This document shows positions 3,201-49,846 of a stretch of DNA of 64,000 nt, in pieces. This DNA is from Eledone cirrhosa (Eukaryota), in assembly GCA_964016885.1 (NCBI GenBank), contig OZ024742.1, positions 268,460,001 through 268,524,000 on the forward strand, read 5' to 3'. Under the pieces are notes generated by a model that saw only the letters and a program-made list of their open reading frames with translations, did no database searches and was not told the DNA's origin. The position numbers were made by a program, and so were the translations under genes. The first letter of the stretch is position 1. Each line of letters starts with the position of its first letter.

Positions 3201-4389
3201 GACCCCTGTGTCTAGATCTTGGCTTTACTATCCTTCCCAATTAGATAAAGGAATCCCCAAGCATCCTAATGTAGAAATTGAATATTTTTGTTATTGTTAC
3301 AACTTCCTAACATCCTTAGGTAGAACTTTGTATATTGTCATTATTATATATTTTCTCCATGGTAAACATTCCCTAAATTTCCTTAGGTAGAAATAGAATA
3401 CATTAATTCTTGCTAAACTATAATTATTGCCCTATGGAACTAGCCGAATAGATAGCTGTGACACTTTACTAGATTTATTACCAATAATTTAACCATGATG
3501 CACAAACTTACTCGTAGCTATTACCGGACTGCCGCTATGGCACGTAAGGTATATAGATCTAACGTGTACTAGCATATAAACTTCTATCATGCAAATGCGC
3601 AAGTACCATCACTTATTATAGCATCAGAATTGTTAAGGAAAGCTATTAATTGAACTGTATTTATATTTCTTCCGATGCCCATGGAAGGCGAGGGCTGTAA
3701 TATACATGTTAGATTCACACTTTGAGGAACATACTTTACTACAGAACTTTAGCTAACTTACAAACAGTATGAGATACAAAATAACTAGTACTATCTTTAA
3801 CATTAAGACTAGATTTAGGGTGTTTGAAAACAAGTAAAAAAAACATGATAGTGAATGCCATGTCACGGAGCAATCGATAACTAGATTTCTCTATGATGAG
3901 GAGAAATAGTAATAAATTATAAATGTTTAGCCTTTTAGCAAATTGTAAAGATATAGCAAAAAACATAAATACTCTTTGGCTGAAATGCGCTGAAAATATA
4001 TTTTCTCTTGTTGAGTTTCTTTCTCTCTTGAAATGAAGTTTACCACAAAACCATTTCTACAGATTGGAAATAGTTGATAAAGATTAAATCTCACTTAATA
4101 ATCTGTGTGCGTGGCTGACTAGCTAGGCACTTTCTGGTCCATTAGTCTACCGACTCCCCTCTCAGTTTAGCATATCTAGCACCTCGCCGCTAAAAAACGT
4201 AATAAATAAAATACACGATATTTAGCAGGATTACACCAGCCATTTGATCTATCGTAACTCCAGCCACTACCCACATCACTGACCAGTCCCGAGAAAAACT
4301 AAAAAATAACAAGCTCTTAAGTTTTTTGTTATTTTTTTTGGTATTTGCTTTGACTGTATACCCATATATAGACTGTACTACTTGATAAT

Positions 4390-4562
4390 TTCAGTTAGAT
4401 TCCCGCCGTTCGAAGACCGGTGATTCAGTTGAGATCTAGCTGTCGAAATGGCAGGAGATTCAGTTCAGATCTAGCTGTCGAAATGGCGGAAGCTCAGCCG
4501 GCAGGGTCCTGAATCTTATCGGACGGAACTGTAAAAGGTAGACATACATTCATCCATGCATA
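4390..4562. repeat. Short dispersed element with internal ~37-bp subrepeats (gattcagttcagatctagctgtcgaaatggc)
   Basis: Same sequence recurs at 8020-8209 (partly inverted) and a relative occurs at 55455-55581. It abuts (TA)n. Confidence 0.7.
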
Positions 4563-4577
4563 TATATATATATATAT

Positions 4578-7500
4578 TGGATTAAATGCTCTGAAATAGC
4601 GATATATATGTGAAGATAGACATAGAATATTCGAAAATATTCTGTATGTTTATAATAAACATTTTGAAGACCTAATCGCTATAGAATAGAATACGTCACG
4701 TATTACAATTAGATTCTCGATAAAAGCAAGGGAAGTAACCTACGCGTTTCATTCTTATTAGAAATCTTCAGGATTACATATCCAGTGCTTTTATCGAGAA
4801 TGACACAGCTAGAGACTTATAGAATACTTAGCTGTGTACAGGAACTGGTTTGAAAGAGCGGTTGCCGGTCCGGCAGAAATTAGAAATTGGATTAAATGCT
4901 CTGAAATAGCGATATATATGTGAAGATAGACATAGAATATTCGAAAATATTCTGTATGTTTATAATAAACATTTTGAAGACCTAATCGCTATAGAATAGA
5001 ATACGTCACGTATTACAATTAGATTCTCGATAAAAGCAAGGGAAGTAACCTACGCGTTTCATTCTTATTAGAAATCTTCAGGATTACATATCCAGTGCTT
5101 TTATCGAGAATGACACAGCTAGAGACTTATAGAATACTTAGCTGTGTATAGGAACTGGTTTGAAAGAGCGGTTGCCGGTCCGGCAGAAATTAGAAATTGG
5201 ATTAAATGCTCTGAAATAGCGATATATATGTGAAGATAGACATAGAATATTCGAAAATAGTCTGTATGTTTATAATAAACATTTTGAAGACCTAATCGCT
5301 ATAGAATAGAATACGTCACGTATTACAAGTAGATTCTCGATAAAAGCAAGGGTAGTAACCTACGCGTTTCATTCTTATTAGAAATCTTCAGGATTACATA
5401 TCCAGTGCTTTTATCGAGAATGACACAGCTAGAGACTTATAGAATACTTAGCTGTGTACGGGAACTGGTTTGAAAGAGCGGTTGCCGGTCCGGCAGAAAT
5501 TAGAAATTGGATTAAATGCTCTGAAATAGCGATATATATGTGAAGATAGACATAGAATATTCGAAAATATTCTGTATGTTTATAATAAACATTTTGAAGA
5601 CCTAATCGCTATAGAATAGAATACGTCACGTATTACAATTAGATTCTCGATAAAAGCAAGGGAAGAAACCTACGCGTTTCATTCTTATTAGAAATCTTCA
5701 GGATTACATATCCAGTGCTTTTATCGAGAATGACACAGCTAGAGACTTATAGAATACTTAGCTGTGTACAGGAACTGGTTTGAAAGAGCGGTTGCCGGTC
5801 CGGCAGAAATTAGAAATTGGATTAAATGCTCTGAAATAGCGATATATATATGAAGATAGACATAGAATATTCGAAAATATTCTGTATGTTTATAATAAAC
5901 ATTTTGAAGACCTAATCGCTATAGAATAGAATACGTCACGTATTACAATTAGATTCTCGATAAAAGCAAGTGAAGTAACCTACGGGTTTCATTCTTATTA
6001 GAAATATTCAGGATTACATATCCAGTGCTTTTATCGAGAATGACACAGCTAGAGACTTATAGAATACTTAGCTGTGTACAGGAACTGGTTTAAAAGAGCG
6101 GTTGCCGGTCCGGCAGAAATTAGAAATTGGATTAAATGCTCTGAAATAGCGATATATATGTGAAGATAGACATAGAATATTCGAAAATATTCTGTATGTT
6201 TATAATAAACATTTTGAAGACCTAATCGCTATAGAATAGAATACGTCACGTATTACAATTAGATTCTCGATAAAAGCAAGGGAAGTAACCTACGCGTTTC
6301 ATTCTTATTAGAAATCTTCAGGATTACATATCCAGTGCTTTTATCGAGAATGACACAGCTAGAGACTTATACAATACTTTGCTGTGTACAGGAACTGATT
6401 TGAAAGAGCGGTTGCCGGTCCGGCAGAAATTAGAAATTGGATTAAATGCTCTGAAATAGCGATATATATGTGAAGATAGACATAGAATATTCGAAAATAT
6501 TCTGTATGTTTATAATAAACATTTTGAAGACCTCATCGCTATAGAATAGAATACGTCACGTATTACAATTAGATTCTCGATAAAAGCAAGGGAAGTAACC
6601 TACGCGTTTCATTCTTATTAGAAATCTTCAGGATTACATATCCAGTGCTTTTATCGAGAATGACACAGCTAGAGACTTATAGAATACTTAGCTGTGTATA
6701 GGAACTGGTTTGAAAGAGCGGTTGCCGGTCCGGCAGAAATTAGAAATTGGATTAAATGCTCTGAAATAGCGATATATATGTGAAGATAGACATAGAATAT
6801 TCGAAAATATTCTGTATGTTTATAATAAACATTTTGAAGACCTAATCGCTATAGAATAGAATACGTCACGTATTCCAAGTAGATTCTCGATAAAAGCAAG
6901 GGAAGTAACCTACGCGTTTCATTCTTATTAGAAATCTTCAGAATTACATATCCAGTGCTTTTATCGAGAATGACACAGCTAGAGACTTATAGAATACTTA
7001 GCTGTGTACAGGAACTGGTTTGAAAGAGCGGTTGCCGGTCCGGCAGAAATTAGAAATTGGATTAAATGCTCTGAAATAGCGATATATATGTGAAGATAGA
7101 CATAGAATATTCGAAAATATTCTGTATGTTTATAATAAACATTTTGAAGACCTAATCGCTATAGAATAGAATACGTCACGTATTACAATTAGATTCTCGA
7201 TAAAAGCAAGGGAAGTAACCTACGCGTTTCATTCTTATTAGAAATCTTCAGGATTACATATCCAGTGCTTTTATCGAGAATGACACAGCTAGAGACTTAT
7301 AGAATACTTAGCTGTGTACAGGAACTGGTTTGAAAGAGCGGTTGCCGGTCCGGCAGAAATTAGAAATTAGATTAAATGCTCTGAAATAGCGATATATATG
7401 TGAAGATAGACATAGAATATTCGAAAATATTCTGTATGTTTATAATAAACATTTTGAAGACCTAATCGCTATAGAATAGAATACGTCACGTATTACAATT

Positions 7501-7855
7501 AGATTCTCGATAAAAGCAAGTGAAGTAACCTACGCGTTTCATTCTTATTAGAAATATTCAGGATTACATATCCAGTGCTTTTATCGAGAATGACACAGCT
7601 AGAGACTTATAGAATACTTTGCTGTGTACAGGAACTGATTTGAAAGAGCGGTTGCCGGTCCGGCAGAAATTAGAAATTGGATTAAATGCTCTGAAATAGC
7701 GATATATATGTGAAGATAGACATAGAATATTCGAAAATATTCTGTATGTTTATAATAAACATTTTGAAGACCTAATCGCTATAGAATAGAATACGTCACG
7801 TATTACAATTAGATTCTCGATAAAAGCAAGGGAAGTAACCTACGCGTTTCATTCT
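4578..7855 (-). repeat. 310-bp tandem array, 10 full copies + 1 partial, each unit with a hammerhead ribozyme motif (retrozyme-like)
   Basis: attaaatgct recurs at 4581, 4891, 5201 ... 7681 (exact 310 period). Units differ by only a few substitutions. (TA)n lies on the left, and on the right after a short inverted copy. Confidence 0.95.
4713..4801 (-). ncRNA. Type I hammerhead ribozyme (first array copy; repeats every 310 bp)
   Basis: Minus strand reads GTAATC-CTGAAGA-tTTCT aata AGAAt-GAAAC-GC-GTA/GGTTAC. Stem I is GTAATC/GGTTAC, extended past an internal loop by the 16-bp helix attctcgataaaagca/tgcttttatcgagaat. Stem III ACGCGT is palindromic. Predicted cleavage lies between 4741 and 4740. 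Confidence 0.85.
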
Positions 7856-7856
7856 C

Positions 7857-7970
7857 GTAATCCTGAAGATTTCTAATAAGAATGAAACGCGTATTCTATT
7901 CTATAGCGATTAGGTCTTCAAAATGTTTATTATAAACATACAGAATATTTTCGAATATTCTATGCCTATC

Positions 7971-7975
<5 letters not shown>
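7857..7975 (+). repeat. Inverted, internally deleted partial copy of the 310-bp unit
   Basis: Reverse complement of unit sequence (approx. 4606-4777) lacking 49 nt, followed by (TA)n. Confidence 0.9.
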
Positions 7976-8019
<44 letters not shown>

Positions 8020-8023
<4 letters not shown>

Positions 8024-8113
8024 AGATTCAGGACCCTGCCGGTTGAGCACCGGTGATTCAGTTCAGATCTAGCTGTCGAAATGGCCGGAGCTCAGCCGGC
8101 AGGGTCTGAATCT

Positions 8114-8166
<53 letters not shown>

Positions 8167-8209
8167 CATAGATGAATGTATGACTACCTTTACAGTTCCG
8201 TCCGATAAT
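8020..8209. repeat. Foldback copy of the 4390-4562 element
   Basis: aagattcaggaccctgccggttgagc ... gctcagccggcagggtctgaatctt form inverted arms. 8163-8209 is the reverse complement of approx. 4515-4562. Confidence 0.75.
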
Positions 8210-8237
8210 ATACATGTGGAAGCACACGCCTCTCTTC

Positions 8238-8529
8238 CGTTGCCAATAAGAAACACACGCCAATTGCTTTCACTTCAATTTATTATAAATTAAATTTATA
8301 AATTTAGGAATTTATAAATTTCCAGTTGGTTGGTTGGTTGGTTGGTTCCACAACCAGACGATTGTTCATATATTGTCAAAGTTCTTTCGTCACACATTAT
8401 GTGACCACTTCAGTGATTGGGGATTATTTTCTGGTGCGTGTGTTTCTTATTGGCAACATGACCCTCCCAAAGCATAACAATATCGGTTTCAACACACGTT
8501 TTCAGATAAAGAATATTGCTAAAAAATGC

Positions 8530-8530
<1 letters not shown>
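8238..8530. mobile_element. Penelope-like 3' terminal (pseudo-LTR) fragment with an inverted terminal segment
   Basis: 8238-8425 matches approx. 24658-24830 and 42214-42395. 8432-8525 is the reverse complement of approx. 24590-24680. It ends in (TA)n. Confidence 0.8.
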
Positions 8531-8610
<80 letters not shown>

Positions 8611-8759
8611 AAAAAAAATATATATGAATATAGATTTGAAAGAGTTGAAGACAGTTTTGCATATTGCTATTGTTTCGGTATTAAGTTAACAGAAATAATA
8701 ATGACAAGAATAATAACAAATATATAAGTAGTAATAATAAAATAAATATTCGAATGAGA

Positions 8760-10420
8760 AAAGAAAGACCTATGGGCAACTGAAGTAACCCCACCAATCC
8801 TGATCGAGGCTACGAGGGCCACCGGGAAGTGCACCCTTCTCTCCCTCAAATTAATTAGTGTATCTCCTGGTATCACATGCCAATAGTTGTTGCTGTTGTT
8901 GTTATTGTCGCCACCAATACGAAACGAACCCTCAAAGAGTTCCTTCACGCAAAGAATCATAAATGGCCACCTGATAATAAGCATAAGGGTTTCATTTATT
9001 GGCCACTAGGGCTATTATATGGGTGACAATACAAAGACTGGGACATTGGGGTGATACAACCCATCACACAACAAATTAAGAAAGACATTTAACAATCGAA
9101 GTACATAACATACACAAAACTATAAAATATATAACAAAATGAATTCCCCAATAGGGGTTAAACCACACAAGAGCAAAATAGGTAGTCCACCAAACCTGAT
9201 CCAACCGGTGACAGACGCCGTAGGCCATCGATGTAGTGATTGAAAACCTGACCCGTCTCCCACCCCCTCCCACCCCGAACAGCTGAGCAAATTCCTGGCG
9301 AAAGGTCTCTCACATCTGCTTGGAATCGTACAACTTGCGTTCGTTTCAGTCCGTCAAAGATGAAATCGTGGTTTTGTTACCACGTTGTGCCTTCTCTATG
9401 AGGGCCCATCAAACAGCATTGATTCTCTCGTTTCTTAAAAAATACGCCTTAGCTCTGACAATGCAACCTTCGTGTATAGCATTAAAGACATTTTCTAATG
9501 CCATTCTCGCCGCTAGAACCTCAGAGACAATGTCACTGGTTAAAAGAAGGTGGCGGAGCAATCTTCACGATGACTCAGCTGATAGCTGGATCCATCCTAC
9601 ACGCGACTGCAGATATTCGACATAAACTCACAAGTCAGCGATGATAGGACACTAGACGAATGCGTGCAGGATGGTCTCGTTGCCCAACGCACATCTCGGA
9701 TAAGCCCAGAATTCAGAAAATTATTCACTGGCACTGGAGCGAATGTCTTCCCGAAAGGAATAGCTAGTTAGCTTTCGTCGACACCCAGAATTTCCCCAAG
9801 GATGCCATCGTTCTGGCCCTCCACTAACCCTCTATAGAACGCCAGGGATTAGTTTCCACTGATCACATCACCCGCCTGGCCGAGAGCTGCGGGTGCTTGA
9901 AGACATTCCAGTCTCCAAGCGTTTCATCTCGGTATTCGCTTGACCTAGAACTGGGGAAAGTCAAAGAAGCGGAAGATGAGGTAGAGATGCCGTAGTCTAA
10001 GCGCACGTCTGCACATCATCAGCCACAGCTTGCCCAGCCCTCCACGTAGTGAGTGTAGACAGCTGATGGACCCCCTGATCATCGGAGCGCCTCCGTTCCA
10101 TAAAAGGTTAAAGAGCCATCGCTCCAGTGCATCAGGCGAGGCTTAGGACAAGGCACGACCGCTAGGCAGAAATAGATGACGGATACGATATACGCGTTCG
10201 TCACCTCCGCTCGACATTTCACGTATCGCTTCCTCTCGGCACATTTCTGGGTGAGAGAGGCCACCCACTTCGTCACCTCATCCGGCTTTTGTCCGTCTGG
10301 AGGTCCTGACAGAAGCAGACCTCCAGCAATTTAACCAGTTCGTCAATCGCCCAACGACGCTGTTGGACGGCATGGACCTACCTCACCAGGTACCAATCCG
10401 TAGGCCCACCGGCATGTCAT
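8760..10420 (-). pseudogene. Tx1/L1-clade LINE ORF2 C-terminal remnant plus probable 3' UTR
   Basis: RAEVTNAYIVSVIYFCLAVVPCP (ORF 10079-10276) and a decayed zinc knuckle PRCALGNETILHAFV*CP near 9650-9700. Confidence 0.7.
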
Positions 10421-13629: not shown

Positions 13630-15900
13630 TTGCTTGTAGCATTGTCGAACTTGAAATATAAATTTAAATAATTTTAAAAACCATACAATGCATTAGAAAA
13701 TTAAAGATGCCCAGATAACGATAGAATCTTACCCATTATCTAAGGAGTGTCTCTATGAAAGTCTTAACAGACCCATTCGGAGATGAGTTGCTTTTAGTAT
13801 GTCAGAATTTAATTTAAATATGATGAAATACATATATATATATAATATAATGAAGCAAATAAGAAAAAGTTTCAAAATAAATTTTAAAAAATTCACTGTA
13901 CTTACTATGTTTACCTTTACCAAATCGGTTCCGAGTCTCAAAAATAAATGTAAAGTCCCTGCGGGTTTCCATTGAAAAGATAAACTCTCGTCAGAAGGTT
14001 CTTTTAACTCGGAGAATATAACATTCCCGAGTTCAAATTACGAACTGCCGCTATTCAAAATTGTTCTCGAGATGAGAATGAATGATGTGGAAGCAATTCT
14101 GTCCAGTCCCGTGTGTAAAGATAGAAGCAGAGGCAGGGAGGTCAGTCTACTACTACTATAAATAGCAGCAGTCAAAATGACCAGATTTCATCTCAACCAG
14201 AGGAAGATTAATAATAATAAAGTATCCCTGCACACAAAAAACGAATAGGAACTCATGTACTATCCAACCATTTGCCAATGTGGTTCAATGGCAGGTTAAT
14301 AAATTAACGAGCTAGAACATATATAATCAAGATTTAGCAAATAAGAAAAAAGTTTCAAAATAAATTTCAAAACAAAAAATATATATATATATATATGTGT
14401 GTGTAGATAAATCTACCAAATATCCGTATGAAGAACTAAATGTAATCCAAATATAAAAGATATCATGAAAAGAGAAGATGCATTCACAAATTTACGATAA
14501 TAGACATAGCAAAACAGAGTCAAGATAAATTAATAAAAACAATGAAATAAAAACAAAGAACAAGTTCCTTATATTTAAAAAAATCATCATTTTACGATCG
14601 TTTCTGGGATGTATATGTGTGTTGGTATGTATATCATGTTTAAGATCTATGTAAGAATACTACAAATTATCAGAGGAAATATACATATCTTCACATATAC
14701 ATGCCGTCCTCAGAAATAATGAGATGTGTTTATTGAAAAAAACAAACAATTGATATAAAGAGTCTGTTTGGGAACAGGTTTTGAATTGACCAATAGAAAT
14801 GAGTTGGAGGTCAAGTTGATAGAATAACAGTAGTAGAAATTAAATCTAGGAGTGGAGGAGTGCCGATTTATGCTTTGAATGAAAAGAATACTATGGGGAG
14901 GAGAAAGGTGGGGATTAAAATGAGGTCAAATCAAGAAGATAATGAAGTGTACACGAAAATTTGATGTTATTAAAGAATGTTGTTACAAACGAAGGAAAAA
15001 AAATATGGGATAAGGGTATTAGTGAGAAATACCAATCTTATATAAACTACAAGGAATCTAGATTCATAACAGGACATTTAATTAATTCATAGGTATACTT
15101 ACAGGGATAAAATTATATTAATTCATATGAATGTGATAAATAAAGAAGTAAAAAATTAAAGCAATAAAAAATATATATATGGAAAAACTGAGATAGATAA
15201 AAATGTTTATAAAGAGTATTGTATCTATATGGACATTGATGATATTAAAGATATTAATTATAATTAATAATCATAGCTATTAAATGTGTTAAATAGGGGA
15301 TGCGAGTAAATGCAGTAGTGAGGTTAAAAATAATTTTAGGAAAAGAGAGCTGTAAGAGGGAAATACAATTATGAAATTCTCTGTACTAAAATACTAATTG
15401 TAGGTTAACTAAATTTAAAAAATCAATTATAATAATTCGTAAAATATAAGAGTAAGGTATATATATTAATTAAGTTTATAATATTGGAAGGTTTTTCTAA
15501 TTCTATGATTGTAAGATATAATTAATTCCTGTCGCTTATTTAATAGGATATCCTTAGATTTCATCATTTCAAAAGGTTCTTGGGAGCATAACCTACACTC
15601 ATATCTGCTATTTTGATAAGGGGTGGCCCTTTTAAGCACGGTTCTGGTCAGGTTATAATCAATGTTCTTCTTTCTACAATTATTAATTGCTTCGGCCAAG
15701 GATGTTGTATTAGCTAAAGCGGCATCTTTAAAACTATGTTTATGGGTATTAAATCTTACTTTAAATTGGTTAGACATAGCTCCTATATATGAATGAGTGG
15801 ATATCTTACTGCTAATTTTACATTTATAGACTATGTTATTAAAAAAACAATTTCCCTTTAATGGGCCTGTTATTTCTAGTAAACGAGAAACCCACACAAA
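13630..15900 (-). pseudogene. Penelope-like element 3' remnant (GIY-YIG domain + long AT-rich 3' region)
   Basis: ORF 15466-15897: PLKGNC..NIVYKC..SYIG..FK.RF..HK.SF..CRLC..E..LLNKRQE. The extent of the 3' region is approximate. Confidence 0.75.
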
Positions 15901-24544: not shown

Positions 24545-24574
<30 letters not shown>

Positions 24575-24577
<3 letters not shown>

Positions 24578-27500
24578 CGTTTTTGAATTTGTTTAGCAAG
24601 ATTCTTTATCTGAAAACGTGTGTTGAAACCGATATTGTTATACTTTGGGAGGGTCATGTTGCCAATAAGAAACACACGCAGCAGTTGCTTTCACTCCAAT
24701 TTATTATCGATTAAATTATAAATTAAAAAAAATATATAAATTTCCGGTTGGTTGGTTGCTTCCACAACCGGATTGTCAAAGTTCTTTCGTCACAAATTCT
24801 GTGACCTCATCCATGGCCGGGGATTCTTTTCTTTGTTTTGTGCCTCTCCTTCGTTCTGTCCTACGCCATCTTGTTGTTGTGAGTGTTGGGTACTTAGTTT
24901 GCGCATGTGTTACATCCGGGTGTCTGTGTGTGTTTTTATTTGTTTATTTATTTGTTTATTTACATGTCACTAGTTGGTTGTTTATTCTATGTGTGTGTGT
25001 TTTCATTTTGTCCTTAATTGTAAGTTGTGATCTTGCTATTCCATTCATGTTTTTTATTTAATTTTGGTTGAAGTTCATTTATGTTTATTGCCTCTGTGAT
25101 TTGTCTAAATATTGCGTCATTTCTATGTATAGATTTTATTTTTATTTCTATGTTCTCTAATTTGCCCTTATGTTCTATTTTAGCATGTTGGTGGAGTACT
25201 GATGAATCTTTTCTATCTTAAAACTCTAGCCAGTGTTCATTTAATCGTTCTCCTATACTACGAGCTGCCTCACCTATGTACATTATGTTCTTATCTTTAC
25301 ATTGTCCCTCAGTACATCTTATGCTATATATATGTTTCTAGTTTTGCAGTAGATATAGGGACTTAGTTTACAGATTATACATTTCTTATCTATACAGGGA
25401 GGTCTTGAAAAGGGTATGTATTAGTAATAAGTGTTTTTATGAAGGTACCTGGTCTTTCTACTATCTTAATATTTAGTTTAAGTTTATCTAGGGCCCTTCT
25501 AAATTTGTAAGCTAGTTCACCTATAGGGGTTATATTAATGAACATTACACTCTGGTATTTATTGCTATCATACCATGAGTGTATTCTATTAACCTTATTC
25601 CTAGTTGTTCCTATTCTATTCCAAAAATTGCTCCTATACAAGGGGCAGGTCCAATTTGTATCATTATTTACCATTTTTTTCCCATTTGGTTCTGGCTCCG
25701 CTATATACTCTGATTGTATTTCTCTGATTGTAACCAGAGACTGCATACGGTGGATGACGTGTTGTATGTGTCTGTCTAGTTCTTTGGGGTTGCACATGCG
25801 GGACACGTTCCTCATCAACCGTACTAAATCCGCAATCAGTATGTTGATTTTGGTGTGATCCGAAACAGCTGAATTTCGGTGGATCAGGTATTTGGAAGTC
25901 ATGGGTTTGGCATAATGGGAATGGAGGATTTGTTTTTTGTCATTAATGGTTTCTAACCAGAGCTCTGAGTCTAGTACCGGTAATCGATGGTTGGTCTGTT
26001 TACTAGGGTAGTCTATAGTAACTTTAATACTCTGGTGGATGGAGTTAGCTATGTGCTGGATGGTTTCCATGGTGTTTTTCTCTAATTCCTGACTGTTCTC
26101 TAGTGGGGGTGTTTTACTACGATGTTTATAGCATCAATGTAGCGGGAGTACATAAGGAGGGTTAAGAAGTTGTTGTCTTCTAATTGTTCTTTAAGTTTAT
26201 TGTCCCACCATACCATGAATATATTTGATATGTCACCTGCAATGCTAACACCAATGGTTGCTCCCTCTTCTTGGGCATATGTTTTTCCATTAAATTTGAA
26301 CATATGTTCCTTATGGGTTAGTTTTATACTGGCACCCACCGCATGTGCAATCATTTTCGATGTTCATCATGGATTTCGGGGGTCCGTATGACTCTGGTCC
26401 ATGCATTGCATCTTTCCGTGTGGGTTTTGTTGGCCATTGAGGTAATGGTAAGTGGTCTGCCTCTTGCTGGCCTTGTGGAGAAGAGGTTGCTAAGGTCATA
26501 CGTATCTAGATAATTATTATTGTATGTATGTTTAAGTAGAAATCCCAGCTCACTGATATCACTCCCACGGAATTCAACATTGCTCTCAATGATCATTGGC
26601 ACGCATTACTCCACAGCAAAGTCCCCGTCAATCGATGGGAATAGGGACACTACATCCATACTACCTATTATACAGTCTGATAGTTCACTAGACAGGTTAT
26701 TTTCGCTGATTCTGCTGAGGAGGTCCTCCGTGCTGTCACATATGTCCGCGAACATTTCCATGATGGGGCGTACGATCAGGGAGAGGAAGTAGGAAAGTCT
26801 GTAGTTGCTAGCAATGTTATCTCCACAGACTGGTCGTGTTGGTGGTCCTGTGACTGGGTCACTCTTCGTCTTATGGACTTCTCGTCACTGTTCCAGGCCT
26901 GGAAGTTGTTGGCAATCCGTTTATTGGGCTGTATTATGTTTGTCCACATCATCATATGAGCGTTGATGGTTTTCACCCTATCCTCATGCTCTTGTGGTCT
27001 TACTTCTCTTGTGTTAGTGATGTGGGGTTGCATTGCCTGGATGTAGTTTGACAGACTGTCAACCGACATTCTGCCAGACTTGTCTGTTGGAAAGCATGCA
27101 ATCCCTCCATTACGTGAGCGCTGCATGAGCTTACCCAAGCCATTTGCAGATTTTTCTCCCAGCGGCTTGTTACTATACTGTTCTATAATATTTCTAAGTT
27201 TAGATCTAGCTATATAAAATTGTGCTTCTGTTGGTTCATCGAACTGTGATGGCAATTGCGTGCGTTTGTTAAAAGTTAAAGTCGTGGCGTGGACTCATCG
27301 TAAGTCGAAGGATATATCAGAAGGGTTATAAAAAGTGGAATTCCAGGTTGCGTTGTGTGTTCTATTGCTATTGTTAATTGTGTTGTTGTTTCTATTTCTA
27401 TTTCCACCAACAGCCTCTTGGTTGTTTCTCTGTCTCTCATTATTATTCCCGTCCCTTCCTTCTGACTCCTTGTTATTATCTACTCTATTTTGTGCATCTG

Positions 27501-29430: not shown

Positions 29431-30592
29431 GGCGACGTGGATTTTGCTGTGGAGAAATGCGTGGAAATGATCAGTGAGTGGAATGTTGAATTCCATGGGA
29501 TTGATACCAGTGAGCTGGGACTCCTATTTAAACTTATATATAATAATTGTTTCTACTTTTGGCACAAGGCCAGCAATTACCCAGTGCATTACTGGTACTC
29601 TATTTTATCGACCCCGGAAGGATGAAAGGCAAAGTTAACCTCGACGGGATTTGAACTCTATCATACAGGGAGTTAACTCTATGCTTCAAAGCATGGCATC
29701 CGACCCTCTACCGATACTGCCGAAACTTATATATAATAATGATTATCTAGATACGTATGACCTTAGCAACCTCTGCTCCACAAGGCCAGCAAGAAACAGA
29801 CCACCTATAATTACCTCAATGGCCAAGAAAACTCACACAGAAAGACGGAACGTGTGGAACAGAGCCATACGGACCCCCGAAAACCATGATGAACCCCTAA
29901 AAGGATTGCACATGCGGTGGGAGCCAGTATAAAATTAACCCTTAAGGAACATATATTCAAATTTGATGGAAAAACATATGCCCAAGAGCAGGGAGCAGCC
30001 ATTGGTGTTAGCATTGCAGGTGACATAGCTAACCTATTCATGGTATGGTGGGACAATAAACTTAAATAACAATTAGAAGACCCATGACTTCCAAGTACCT
30101 GATCCACGGAAACTCAGCTGTTTCGGATCACACCAAAATCAAAATAATGATTGCGGATTTAGTACGAGTGATGAGGAACGTATCCCGCATGTGCAACCCC
30201 AAAGAACTAGAGAGACACATACAACACTTCATCCACCGTATGCAGTTCTCTGGTTACAATCAGAGAGATAAAATCAGAGTATATAGAGGAGCCAGAACCA
30301 AATGGGAAAAAATGGTAAATAATGATACAAATGGGACCTGTCCCTTGTATAGGAGCAAATTTTGGAATAGAATAGAAAGAACTAGGAATAAGGTTAATAG
30401 AATAAACTCATGGTATGATAGCAATAAATACCAGAGTGTAATGTTCATCAATACAACCCGTAGAGGTGAACTAGCTTACACATTTAGAAGAGCCCTAGAT
30501 AAACTCAAACTAAATATTAAGATAGTAGAAAGGCCAGGTACCTCCATAAAAACACTTATTACTAATACATAGCCTTTTCAAGACCTCCATGT
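29431..30592 (+). pseudogene. Inverted partial copy of the same Penelope-like family
   Basis: Matches the reverse complement of approx. 26630-25390. A ~270-bp deletion near 30081 removes the RT YIDD region. A SINE interrupts it and it ends in TA-rich sequence. Confidence 0.9.
29548..29722 (-). mobile_element. SINE with 18-bp target-site duplication
   Basis: aaacttatatataataat at 29530-29547 and 29723-29740. The body (B-box-like gagttcaaatccc, ttgcctttcatcct..ggggtcgataaa) is shared with 45738-46117 and 51528-51585. Confidence 0.9.
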
Positions 30593-39309: not shown

Positions 39310-40350
39310 ACGGGATGTGCAGTGTGTTCATGTTCTTCGTGGGGCTGAGTGCTGGACGGACCACCGGCAGGTACGTGAAAAAGTGTAATTAACTACAAAA
39401 CGTAAAATCCGGGCTGCTGGAGTTACCCTGTCTAAAAGGCTGAATGCTGCTGATCTTAAGGATAATAGTGGGAAGAAAACATTGCAAAACGAAATGAATG
39501 TTGCAGACAAAACGCTGATTTATGCTGTAGGCAGGCGTGTTCTGGGATTAGTACAAAGAAAGCATCAAGACTGGTTTAAAGAAAATGATGACCATGTAGA
39601 TGGATTGTTGGCTGATAAGAGGCGTGCTCTGTCACGGTACTTGGCTGAAAAGCCACAAGAGAAGAATATGTTGCATAAGGAACTCAAAGATGTGAAATTA
39701 CGTGTGAGGTGGAGGCTTTCTCAGATGAAGGATAAGTGGGGGAGTGAGAAGGCTGATGAGGTAACAGCTGCATCAGATTTTAATGACACAAAGCTGTTGT
39801 ACAATCTCTTGCGTGAAGTTTATGGACCGTCTTGTTCTCTGGTGACACCGCTTCGCAGCAAGAATGGCAAGGAAATTATTCTTGACTCACAGGGAATTCT
39901 CCGAAGGTGGCTAGAGCACTTTGATGAACTTTTGAATCAGCCATCTGTCGTCAATGAAGATTTCCTCAATCTCATTCCAGAAAAACCTGTGAAAGTAGCT
40001 CTCGCGGAGCTACCGACTTTTGAGCAGGTTGCAGTAACTGTCTCAAAGCCGAAAAGTGGAAGGTCTCCAGGTATGGATGGCATATATGCAGAGCTCTTAA
40101 ACTATGGTAGTGAGACACTTCTGCAGCATCTTCACTGCTCGTTTGGCAGGATATGGGTAAGTGAATCTTTCCCCGAAGAATCCAGATATTCAGTAATGGT
40201 AGTCTTGTACAATGAAATGGTATCAAGAATGATTGCGGAAACCATAGGTGTATATCATTGCTTTCTGTCGTAGGAAAAAAAATATTTAGGGTTCTTCTGG
40301 ACAGTCTGCTGACACACAGTGTGCAAATGTTTTCGATAAGATATGATGCG
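39310..40350 (+). pseudogene. RTE (BovB-like) LINE internal fragment
   Basis: ECWTDHR, HQDWF.END, ILRRWLEHF..LLN, GRSPGMDGIYAELL. Confidence 0.85.
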
Positions 40351-42069: not shown

Positions 42070-42129
<60 letters not shown>

Positions 42130-42133
<4 letters not shown>

Positions 42134-42810
42134 CGTTTCTTAATTTGTTTAGCAAGATTCTTTATCTGAAAACGTGTGTTGAGACCGATATTGTTATACT
42201 TTGGGAGGATCATGTTGCCAATAAGAAACACACGCACCAGTGCTTTCACTTCAATTTATTATAATAAATTTATAAATTTAGGAATTTATAAATTTCCGGT
42301 TGGTTGGTTGGTTCCACAACCAGTTGGTTGTTTATATATGTTCAAAGTTCTTTCCATAGACATTCAGTGACCTCTTCAGTGACTGGGGATTCTTTTCTTT
42401 GATTTTGTGCCTCTCCTTTGTTCTGTCCTACGACATCTTGTTTCTGTGTGTGTGTTGTGTACTCAGTCTGTGCATGCGCCACATCCGGGTGTCTGTGTGT
42501 GTTTATATTCGTTTATCTATTTGTTTATTTACATGTTGCTGGTTGGTTGTTTGTTCTATGTGCGTGTGTGTTTTAATTTTGTCCTTAATTGTAAGTTATG
42601 ATGTTGCTGTTCCACTCATGTTTTCTATTTAATTTTGGTTGTAATTATTTTATGTTTATTGCCTCTGTGATTTGTCTAAACATTGCGTCTTTTCTGTGTG
42701 TAGATTCTATTTTTATTTCTATGTTCTCTAATTTACCCTTATGTTCTATTTTAGCATGTTGGTAGAGTACAGATGATTTTTTACTATCTTGAAGGTCTCG
42801 TCAGCGTTCA
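42130..42810 (-). mobile_element. 5'-truncated copy of the 24575-27780 Penelope-like 3' end, between (TA)n tracts
   Basis: Colinear with 24575-25240. Confidence 0.85.
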
Positions 42811-46117: not shown

Positions 46118-49100
46118 ATTATCTATTGTATCAGAGCTTCTGTAGATTATTTCATGACCAGGGAACTTGTTGACCATGAACTCATTCACCAATCTTGCTG
46201 CATCATTTGTTGGAATGTTAATGGCTCTATTTGGAACCAATAGTGTGTTTGTGTAGTTTTCTGGAAGATTTGTATACACAAAATCACACAGTCCAGACAC
46301 ATTACCATATTACAGACAAAGTTCATTTGGCAGAAGAATTGTGAATGCACCTACAGTTGGAACAGTTGGAACGTTACCATATCCCACATCAAGAAGGTAG
46401 TTTGCAAACTTTCATCAGAATCCTCTGCATTAATTAATCGTTGATTAGTTGCCATCTCCATGGTTCCCACATAGTCATCCCAGAGATAGGATATCTTGAT
46501 GGTTGTCTCCATTAATTGTGGTCTAGCACCATGACGTACCATTGGAGGAATTTTCTTCCAGTTACCAGATATTAATACTGTTAGACCACCAAATGGCTTT
46601 TTGCAATCTCGAACATCTTTGAAGCTCCTGTCAAGGCATTCAAATGATATGCTTATGTCCCATACCTATCTCATCAATGATTATCAGGTAAGCTTGATGC
46701 ATAGTTTTACCTGTGGCATCCCTCTTTGTGAAGAAGCAAGTTTATTCTGCAGTTAATTGAGAGGAGTCTTGCACTTGGAATCAATAGTTCTACCCTTATG
46801 AAGCAAAGTGGCTGCTATTCCATATATGGCAGTGGCAAGTGCAATTTTGTTTTTAGATCGGAGGTAATCCAATAGGATGTTTATGAAATAGGTCTTTCTT
46901 GTGACTTGCATTCAAGCACAAAATCTCCCTTCATTTTTATTTACAGAGGTGATTACGTTGTGAAAAATAACCAGTTGCTCTGGATTCAATGTTCATTTAT
47001 GTTTGCTTGCAGTTTGTGTGTATTGAAATCAGTTTCTGCCATAAGAATCCTGTTGATCACTGGTATGGCAACAATAGTTGGGTCTGGCCGAGGAAATCCA
47101 TAGTTGGCATGAATGTCCAAGCCATCATGTAGAAGTGTTTTTTGGTTCTTCTGTAGAACAATCAGCACGGTTTTCATGAACATGACTTGCTCATGATTTC
47201 ATGCATGATATCCTCTGCAAGACAATTCTTCCATTTCTCGCAGAGCGTTGTTTGGCATGCAGTACAATAAAATGGGCTAGAAGTCTCTTGCAGCAGAGGA
47301 CCAATCGTAATGGATGAGGCCTCTTCCATAGCTTTGTCTTTTTCCTCATCTTCATCCAACAGACCAAGCTTCCTGCATGCTTCTTGGAATGCTGGAAATT
47401 CAACTCCTTCAATTATTCTCAAATCTTTGTATGAAGCTGACACAGCCTTGAGATGTAGGATCATCCTGAGATAATATAATTCAGATTGATGTCTAATGAG
47501 AGATACTGTTGGAATGCATCCAATAGATTCCCTCATAAATTGTTGATCACCATCCAGATGTCCTTTCTTTCTTCTTTGCCACTTTTTTTTTCAAAGTGGA
47601 ACATTTAGGAATATCAATATACAATATTGTTTTGTGCCAGTGGGTCTCTAATATTCAGTTGGAAATATTCCGTCAACTTAGTCATTGACTGTATCCTAGA
47701 AACAACACTTTCTTCCAGCCCTCGCTCATACACAACCGTTTGTTCTCCAGGTAAATGGAAAGGAAACTTTTACACTGGCGGTTTTCGATGATGTAATGGA
47801 AATTTATAGATTCTCCAGAATGCTTCACTGGCTGATATTACCGTGCATTGATATAGGTCTCAATCTCATTTGGGGCATGGACACAATTTCCTTGATCATC
47901 CTTAATAGTGAAAGTGATCTTGTCTGATCCTTTTGTGATGTACTTATATAAATACTTAACAGCCCTGACATTGTGGACAGCCTCACAATTGATGTGGCAC
48001 TGAAATCTCGATGAGAGGAAAGGGTTGTCCAACGATTATCAACAGGAAATTCTTGGCATTTAAGTTGAAATTGTATAGGTATGACCACCATGCTGTATAT
48101 CCTTCTTCTATACTCCCGAAAGGAATTTTCAGCAACAAATGTGGTTTGTCTGAATGCCTTGGGATAACATTTTGAGCAATGGCGTTGTTATCCTAGACCT
48201 TCCATACATGAGCACATCATATTAGCTTGTCCATATGAGTCATGAGTGTTGCAGGATGTGATGATCTTATCCAGAATTGGATTGGTTTCTTTATCAGGAA
48301 TCTCGCAGTACACTACCTGATCAATAGCATCAGCAGTTTTGGGCTTGCTCTCTTCAGCCATTAACAGCACAATATGAGCATGAGTGAGGGCTCGTTTCTG
48401 CGACTCTATTATAGCATAATAAGCCACAACGTTTCCTAGTAGATTTTTCTGTTTCAGTATGTCATGCATGAGGCTGTCATACTTGATCTTGAAGACTCTT
48501 GCACAAATAACAGGACGGTCTCCAGGTTCTTCACGAAGGTGCAAAGTATTTTTTATTTTATCCCAGTTAAGATTAGGGGTAGGGTACATTCCTCCAAGGA
48601 AACAGTATCGCATAATGTAGAGGATCATAATCACGGTGCATCTCATGGATCCTCTGCAGAACACTATCTCTTTTATGAATGATGACATCCAAAAGACCTA
48701 ATGCTGTATCAGGTTCAATAACAGCAATCTCAGATGCCATGGGAAGATCATATGTGCGACTAAGAAAATCAGTGGCTTTTAATTTGTCAGCATGTAGGAC
48801 AATATTAACATTGTGAGAGACTGGCATTTCAATGACTGCGTTGAAACTTCTTATATAGGTGTTACAATAGTGCAAGTATTGTTGCACTACCTGCAGGACA
48901 GCAGCATCAAAATTAGCATGATGCAAGCGATTCTGAAGCTCGTGATCGGTATCATAGAAGTAAAGCTGCGCAAACCTGGGTGACGTATCACTTGGAAGTA
49001 GTGATCCAATAATATGACAAATCTTACCTTGGATCTTAAATGGGGGGCTAAATACTGGTGCTTTAATCTCTTTGCAGCCAATTGAAGCTGAGGCAAGCAC

Positions 49101-49846
49101 ATTGATATATGCACGTATCTTATGGACAAAATAATTTCATGCTTGAGAGATATCGAAATATTTGAATCTTTTAAAAGAGGTGAATCTTAAAATATGCAAT
49201 AATATTTTTAATATATGTTTAATCATGTGTTACGAAATTTAGTAGATAAATTATGTAATATTCATTCATTATTTATTCAAAATAATCCAACTTATTTTAC
49301 ATACGGGATAAACATTTATATTCTGGATGTAGGCCCGCACTCTTATTATAGTTAAGATATTCAATTTAGGACATCCGAATGGTTTCCAACTACGAATTTT
49401 GATAATGATATAAAGAAAAGTAGTAGCCGAAAATGACTGAAGTAATAATAGTGATGTGACCATTACAATTACTTTCGTAGTATTTAGGCTCATTTATAGT
49501 ACGCACTGCTCCATGCAAAAGCATGCGCAAACGAGGATATATTACATAAAACTGTGTACACATAGACTCGTGTGCATGTGTACATGTACACATGTAATCG
49601 CGAATGAGTTTGTATGTGCTTGTTTAAATGTATGCATACATATAAATATACTCGCACCTATATGCTTCTAAAATACACACACACGTTTATATCGGTATGC
49701 ACATATGCATAGATATTCAGGATGTGCATGCACAGGCACGTATTTGTGCACACACTCTGTATATTAACACATACATATACATGCATATATATATATATAT
49801 ACATAAACACACATAAACACCCACACACGCACACACACACACACAA

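Follow-up and report, generated by a model that had tools for sequence, protein, structure and literature searches.

Retrozymes and Penelope-like elements

The described systems that lie closest to the locus reported here are the retrozymes of animals and the Penelope-like elements (PLEs) with which they have been linked. Metazoan non-LTR retrozymes, as set out in the main text of Cervera and de la Pena 2020 (PMC7229834), are tandem, non-coding repeats of 170-400 nt with low GC and one type I hammerhead in each unit, and the 310-nt family of this report resembles them in all of these, as it does in its short stem III, in a U.U pair at the foot of stem II like that of the axolotl HHR_Amex2 and in the PLEs that co-exist with it. 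For those elements cleavage and circles have been shown, with mobilisation by PLEs and synthesis of tandem cDNA from the circles proposed only, and the word 'inverted' has no occurrence in that main text. What the 310-nt family adds is the anatomy of its insertions and the pattern of their variants, whereas cleavage and circles are predicted here.

The retrozymes of vertebrates have been tied to PLEs by co-occurrence and by homology of terminal repeats (Li, Clavereau and Pollet 2026, bioRxiv 10.64898/2026.07.22.740005), with the mechanism called open; neither 'tail' nor 'target site' occurs in the text of that preprint as available. They share with the 310-nt family the link to PLEs, the multimers and a similar unit size, but for the 310-nt family no terminal-repeat homology was found in three PLE families sampled, and it does carry the footprint of a PLE insertion.

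This footprint is known from EN+ PLEs (Craig et al. 2021, PMC8557442; Frangieh et al. 2024, PMC11167929). According to the main texts of these papers, PLE insertions have an inverted, truncated arm, a tail at one end and a bias towards (TA)n (PMC8557442), and for an anole PLE in vitro the tail corresponds to what lies between two internal starts of reverse transcription, both target strands are cut and extended, and uncut RNA is the main substrate, hammerhead cleavage being unnecessary (PMC11167929). The 310-nt family has the same head-to-head, inverted and 5'-truncated arms, the tail at one end, the (TA)n target and the two internal starts downstream of the hammerhead. It differs in having no ORF, a tail of 26-33 nt and arms of up to 28 exact repeats, in using the two starts one per arm (46 of 49 insertions) and in a short start with homology to the target, the starts of the anole PLE having been at non-homologous sites (PMC11167929). 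The non-autonomous PLEs of Chlamys, such as MRC1 (PMC8557442, main text), are likewise non-coding, multicopy in head-to-tail order and moved by PLEs, but at the 3' end they are similar to autonomous partners, and most Chlamys elements lack hammerheads, whereas the 310-nt family carries one and showed no homology to a partner in the PLE families sampled. Retrozyme insertions with two arms and a tail were not found described in the literature covered, nor was the 310-nt family itself; this literature consisted of main texts and included few subscription journals.

The insertion in the window

The window is a stretch of 64,000 nt of contig OZ024742.1 of Eledone cirrhosa, and within it TRF reports a repeat at 4576-7855 with a period of 310, 10.6 copies and 98% matches, there being 18 variable columns across the copies. 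The 10.6 near-identical units of the original prediction are thus found again, with the start moved from 4578 to 4576. The label 'satellite' that was given to them has to be dropped, as the array makes up the long arm of a single retroposed insertion that spans 4576-7983 and includes an inverted short arm of the same unit, which had been overlooked. The outer ends of both arms adjoin (AT)n. The features are collected in Table 1, in which unit positions are counted on the minus strand from the predicted hammerhead cut (position 1 at 4740).

Table 1. Features of the 310-nt insertion (window coordinates unless unit positions are given)
Feature	Position	Strand	Details
Long arm	4576..7855	-	10.6 tandem 310-nt units, RNA sense; outer 3' end at unit position 165 ('long' start)
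Long arm, inner 5' end	unit position 296	-	
'Tail'	4576..4601	-	26 nt, unit positions 140-165; at outer end of long arm, missing from the other end
Inverted short arm	7857..7983	+	unit positions 274-310 (7857-7893), then 46-139 (7890-7983); 4-nt overlap CGTA at the join
Short arm, outer end	unit position 139 ('short' start)	+	C131 reads T
Short arm, hammerhead core	7857..7893	+	core without the 3' strand of stem I
Left (AT)n target run	4560..4575	.	
Right (AT)n target run	7974..8019	.	overlaps the AUAU tract of unit positions 132-139
Hammerhead core, copy 1	4735..4777	-	CUGAAGA at 4771-4765; predicted cut 4741/4740; repeats every 310 bp up to copy 10 (C3 at 7561)

The GC content of the array region is 33-35%, no ORF of 120 aa or more is present in the window array, and the RT and GIY-YIG ORF of an autonomous PLE is absent from the 310-nt unit. 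Non-coding tandem units within the range of about 170-400 nt, low in GC and with one type I hammerhead each, make up the feature set of a retrozyme. Instead of the large, in-place arrays with arbitrary ends that define a classical satellite, there are short dispersed arrays with two fixed ends, and the inverted 5'-truncated arm, the tail at one end and the microsatellite target are those of a PLE-mobilised element.

An older small repeat lies on either side of the insertion (4402-4559 and 8020-8214), in inverted pieces that end at (AT)n and carry a GCTGTCGAAAYGGC hairpin, in which no hammerhead core was seen. It was considered as the terminal inverted repeats of the array and rejected, being an older, separate family that is present in 11 of the fetched loci. 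The jump from unit position 310 to 46 within the short arm was likewise considered as a switch onto a cut 3' end, and was rejected, since it occurs once among the 10 discontinuities listed and has an overlap of 4 nt at the join. Elsewhere in the window there are what we take, from their translations, to be LINE-like endonuclease/RT and Helitron-like remnants (104-1897, 39389-40273 and 47174-49136).

A young family of high copy number

The genome-wide copy search that had been proposed for the unit found it to be dispersed and tandem, with at least 14,973 units counted by two mutually exclusive exact ribozyme patterns (3,392 and 11,581 units; reversed controls gave 0). At least 260 matches (40 of 266 candidates scored) came from a DNA search of the 3.0-Gb genome. 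Of the 200 full units in the first 38 insertions, 68 match the window unit exactly, with a mean difference of 0.42%. As a retrozyme family the 310-nt repeat is new, young and of high copy number.

There is also an older sister family, about 320 nt in length and 70-80% alike, which has 567 exact matches and ends at the same two points as the young family. Its copies (L156-L169, and L043 at 1323-1423) have a natural U3-A8 core, a stem II closed at its base by G-C, the site GUC and a longer palindrome in stem III. Within the young family a 312-nt subfamily (L137, L145, L148, L149) is longer by an insertion of 2 nt, and its long ends are shifted (164, 170). The genome also holds other hammerhead repeat families (L026 at 5739-9711, L035 at about 3770-4660, L022 at 5494 and L042 at 7370), which include a tandem repeat, about 515 nt long, and another whose core is a minimal CUGAUGACGAAA.

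Low-depth contigs of the family occur in the public runs X5, X10, X8, X6, X19 and X4, which are labelled as other organisms and one wastewater sample; there is one such contig per run (two in X8), mostly of the dominant subfamily, and three contigs of 340 nt (X5, X10 and X8) are exactly 310+30 nt and closed. These contigs are probably carry-over between samples and are given no weight as evidence. The eight public runs covered consist of contigs or DNA reads and bear on DNA alone.

The hammerhead

The claim that each unit carries a type I hammerhead on the minus strand is borne out by ten cores in the window, with C3 at 4771+310n and predicted cuts between 4741 and 4740, +310n. The core is laid out as stem I GUAAUC/GGUUAC, CUGAAGA, stem II with a U.U pair and UUCU/AGAA, GAAAC-GC-GUA and the palindrome ACGCGU. 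Seven cores were said to be intact, which they are, copies 5 and 10 reading CUGAAUA and copy 4 having a mismatch in stem I; copy 5 also has a broken ACGCGU palindrome and copy 8 a change from C-G to U.G. The 16-bp extension of stem I is there as described, with 4801-4786 pairing with 4728-4713 and enclosing the hammerhead (minus strand, 4713..4801), and it is preserved by compensatory changes in the sister family. The three named hairpins of the unit are also present in the sequence.

When the unit was shuffled 20,000 times with its dinucleotides preserved, a type I descriptor matched one shuffle on either strand, and the core is kept in 410 of 424 sampled copies. Rfam, where the check was to be made with Hammerhead_1, returned no Hammerhead_1 row; the best match is to Hammerhead_HH9 in one copy (20.3 bits, E 0.23), and with 24.6 bits in the sister family both scores fall far below the gathering value of 52. 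Matches to Rfam microRNAs were set aside as microsatellite noise.

Further evidence comes from an alignment of 14 sequences, five young and nine old, from which RNAalifold recovers the three-stem junction unaided. The named structure has 92% of its cells paired, compared with 36-44% in slid controls, and 18 of 27 pairs show changes on both sides; the 14 sequences are essentially two lineages, so the independent covariation events are few. The tertiary pair C3-G8 is replaced by U3-A8 in the old family (9 of the 14 sequences), a covariation that is reported among natural hammerheads in the main text of PMC3088659. Common changes among the young subfamilies also preserve the fold, including the replacement of U.U by A-U as the basal pair of stem II. 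Covariation in the aligned sequences thus shows the hammerhead fold to be real and under selection.

The linear monomer folds with z = -3.68, and in the monomer folded as a circle the pair probabilities are 0.05-0.07 for stem II and about 0 for stem III, so that the predicted self-cleavage would probably need a dimer or the help of a protein. The U.U closing pair of stem II, named at the outset as a reason for doubt, is indeed there, but the worry over it is eased, since the axolotl HHR_Amex2 has U.U at the same place and cleaves, better as a dimer (PMC7229834, main text), and an A-U form exists at L072. Eight of nine retrozymes of Xenopus failed to cleave in vitro (Li et al. 2026, available text).

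Two ends, two arms and one kind of target

The anatomy of the family was read from 110 insertions, with L122 and L144 (duplicated) and L140 (empty) excluded. Because 44 of the 110 were chosen by their end pattern, the fair count is that of the remaining 66, in which 110 of 115 arms stop at unit positions 137-139 (56 arms) or 163-172 (54 arms), an AT run lies within 2 nt of 105 of the 115 arm ends, and in 46 of 49 two-armed insertions the two ends are of different kinds. The family is thus dispersed in two-armed form, with two fixed 3' ends, one per arm, and (AT)n as target. Target-site duplications are unreadable within (AT)n. Over all 110 insertions 78 are two-armed and head-to-head, 73 of them with one short and one long end and two with two long-class ends. 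Junction patterns of the window subfamily number 104 long and 154 short genome-wide; on C1-C9, with 71 long and 99 short, all 35 outward-facing junction pairs are long plus short, and one long plus long pair is found on C20 (L124). The tail is 26-33 nt long across the family, arm lengths range from 0.1 to 28 units, and the inner ends are scattered and joined mostly through short overlaps.

These features give substance to the link with PLEs that had been proposed for the repeat, as two fixed ends, an inverted arm, a tail and an (AT)n target are what a PLE leaves behind, and the two ends match the PLE 'tail' signature, which in vitro has been shown to mark two starts of reverse transcription. 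The inner arm ends were also considered as fossils of hammerhead cuts; 5 of 188 were called at position 1, four of these run past the cut and the fifth (L130) is ambiguous, so there is no enrichment and the idea was rejected.

It could be argued that the inverted arm arose when one cDNA folded back and primed itself, as has been proposed for head-to-head PLE repeats (PMC3846280, main text) and as the short overlaps at most inner junctions would suit, or that it is an artefact of long-read assembly. A fold-back would hardly leave the short-end arm as the longer one in 35 of 73 insertions, nor five insertions in which neither arm contains the other; this inequality argues for twin priming rather than fold-back, and the five would each represent two independent primings. 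As to an artefact, there are contigs in the public run X1 whose loose (AT)n ends lie at positions 139, 167 and 170 of the unit. Both versions of this explanation are extremely improbable. Twin priming as such is known from L1.

The priming itself has left a mark in the variants, C131, which lies just inward of the AUAU tract, being changed in 16 of 32 terminal units at short ends compared with 3 of 276 units elsewhere, as it should be were the cut (AT)n end to pair across that tract.

The template

Rare variants tie the two arms of an insertion together. A rare variant is common to both arms in 11 of 27 insertions, compared with 16 of 702 cross-locus pairs, and in a second set in 9 of 39 insertions compared with 5 of 1,482; the two arms of an insertion therefore have one common donor. 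What form the donor took is a question on which the variants also bear. Among 51 insertions with three or more units, eight carry a rare variant in every covering unit, and two of these eight variants were followed genome-wide: C266A is found in six units of the assembly, all in L048 and three per arm, and A260G in four L129 units and one solitary unit that is without the A20G of L129. No donor array is thus present in the assembly for C266A or A260G, which makes a repeatedly copied monomer the simplest source; donors could instead be unassembled, on another haplotype or lost. In L048, L129, L142 and L143 the insertion-wide private variants run across both inverted arms.

The other side of the picture is that 15 of the 51 insertions, the window included, carry rare variants in some units only, that L027 has variants of period 2, and that the variants follow the same order in both arms of L016 and L021 and partly of L043. 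Partial, periodic or same-order variants such as these need either multimer templates or later exchange between units. They lend weight to a template in the form of a linear transcript that spans several units of an array already in place and is left uncut, with twin priming by a PLE just the same and the hammerhead slow or a passenger, circles being by-products. Besides the partial sharing, and an order that in L016, L021 and partly L043 is the same when read from the outer ends of both arms, this reading draws on the weak predicted fold of the hammerhead and on the preference of the anole PLE for uncut RNA (PMC11167929, main text). It cannot make an insertion-wide new variant without a donor array, such as is missing from the assembly for C266A and A260G; copying of linear donors could only shorten arrays, yet arms reach 28 units; and the hammerhead is maintained by compensatory change. 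As the general source of the insertions a linear template is, on balance, unlikely, though it deserves to be kept in mind.

The window array also has a repeat of variants of roughly five units and, with the periodic variants of L045 and L027, this indicates that some later exchange occurs. It might then be supposed that single or short units were inserted in the manner of a PLE and that the arrays grew in place by unequal crossing-over or slippage, and local amplification has been proposed (Li et al. 2026, available text). Growth of this kind sits badly with private variants in every unit of both arms in the four insertions named above, with arm lengths that correlate (Spearman 0.42, p = 0.0002, n = 73) and with a copy difference of 0.42%, which leaves little time for exchange across the inversion, and it is very improbable as the origin of the arrays.

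The pattern of variants across the insertions is thus likely to reflect rolling of the enzyme on a monomer circle, at least often, the support that the spread of variants lends to it being indirect. A further thought is that the circles might form a viroid-like RNA population that mutates or replicates as RNA between insertions, with the L048 and L129 haplotypes as its snapshots, and that a dimeric PLE enzyme then rolls both strands off the circles; this is decidedly unlikely. The 340-nt contigs in runs labelled as other organisms leave movement of circles from host to host remotely open, carry-over between samples being far likelier.

The candidate driver

PLEs are plentiful in the genome, with 18,580 and 103,606 first-look candidates. 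One family has a CX4CxxC linker and GIY-YIG, and is of Neptune/Nematis type by the main text of PMC8557442; at least two have the RW, DKT and CxCX5C motifs and are of Hydra type. Young autonomous copies are present, the Hydra-type ones having in many cases an open frame of 821 aa and the Neptune/Nematis-type ones frames of up to 921 aa, and an autonomous PLE of this genome has a layout of short and long ends like that of the retrozyme. Among the matches listed in three sampled PLE families of the genome there was no terminal repeat homologous to the unit, and the Neptune-type tail has only ATATCG and ATTTCAGA in common with that of the retrozyme.

In 29 inspected loci of 32 with one arm, four events were found in which a retrozyme arm is joined to an inverted PLE arm. 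The partner is of Neptune/Nematis type in three (L031, L113, and L121 with its duplicate L122) and of Hydra type in one (L036), with a background cover by the Neptune-type family of 2.9%. The join at L031 is short plus long and that at L113 long plus long, and the PLE partners at L031 and L036 are 99.5-100% identical to other copies. The direct joins and the tail motifs are suggestive of a Neptune-type driver; the joins, in which two clades are involved, could stem from later deletions. Between the candidates the balance tips slightly towards a family of Neptune/Nematis type as the driver, and otherwise it would be of Hydra type.

The window itself holds Neptune/Nematis-type PLE remnants at 8239-8530, 24547-24832, 25393-27294, 30066-30569 and 42073-42398, a PLE remnant's own hammerhead core at 42379 on the minus strand, and a GIY-YIG-like remnant at 15469-15900. 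Pfam gave no match on four of the PLE remnants of the window, and on longer PLE frames only weak matches to RVT_1 and GIY-YIG. The two young Hydra-type families, at L073 1688-4150 (821 aa) and L090 4866-7139 (758 aa), are not recognised by Pfam; many copies of the 821-aa frame look intact.

How the insertions may be made and what they mean

The reading that we prefer, with a probability of roughly 70%, is that the 310-nt repeat is a non-coding hammerhead retrozyme that the enzyme of a PLE, acting in trans, inserts by priming from both strands of the target and often by rolling on a 310-nt circle. The minus strand would be transcribed and would cleave itself, probably as a dimer or with the help of a protein, the products then being ligated into circles. 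The PLE endonuclease would nick both strands of an (AT)n run, one DNA end would pair with the AUAU tract of the RNA (132-139) and the other would start 26-33 nt further 3'. Both cDNAs would run for 0.1-28 units and be joined through short overlaps, and it is likely that some insertions were copied from dimers or longer RNAs.

Retrozymes are a known class of element; what is new is the family and its insertion footprint, which, as far as genome sequence can tell, is direct genomic evidence of twin priming by a PLE. The movement of retrozymes in animals, by PLE enzymes and through tandem cDNA made from circles, has so far been a proposal, and the origin of the inverted arm and tail of PLEs is still debated. 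On the latter point the 310-nt family argues for twin priming over fold-back self-priming. In an in vitro assay of the PLE, one strand is predicted to start at 139 and the other at 165, and a circle to yield multi-unit cDNA. An enzyme that would turn a small RNA circle into many-unit DNA, writing both strands into (AT)n, may also be of interest for genome writing. For the biology of such elements, the value of the family is that its thousands of near-identical insertions give a direct view of the two starts, of the target, of the common donor and of how many turns were made.
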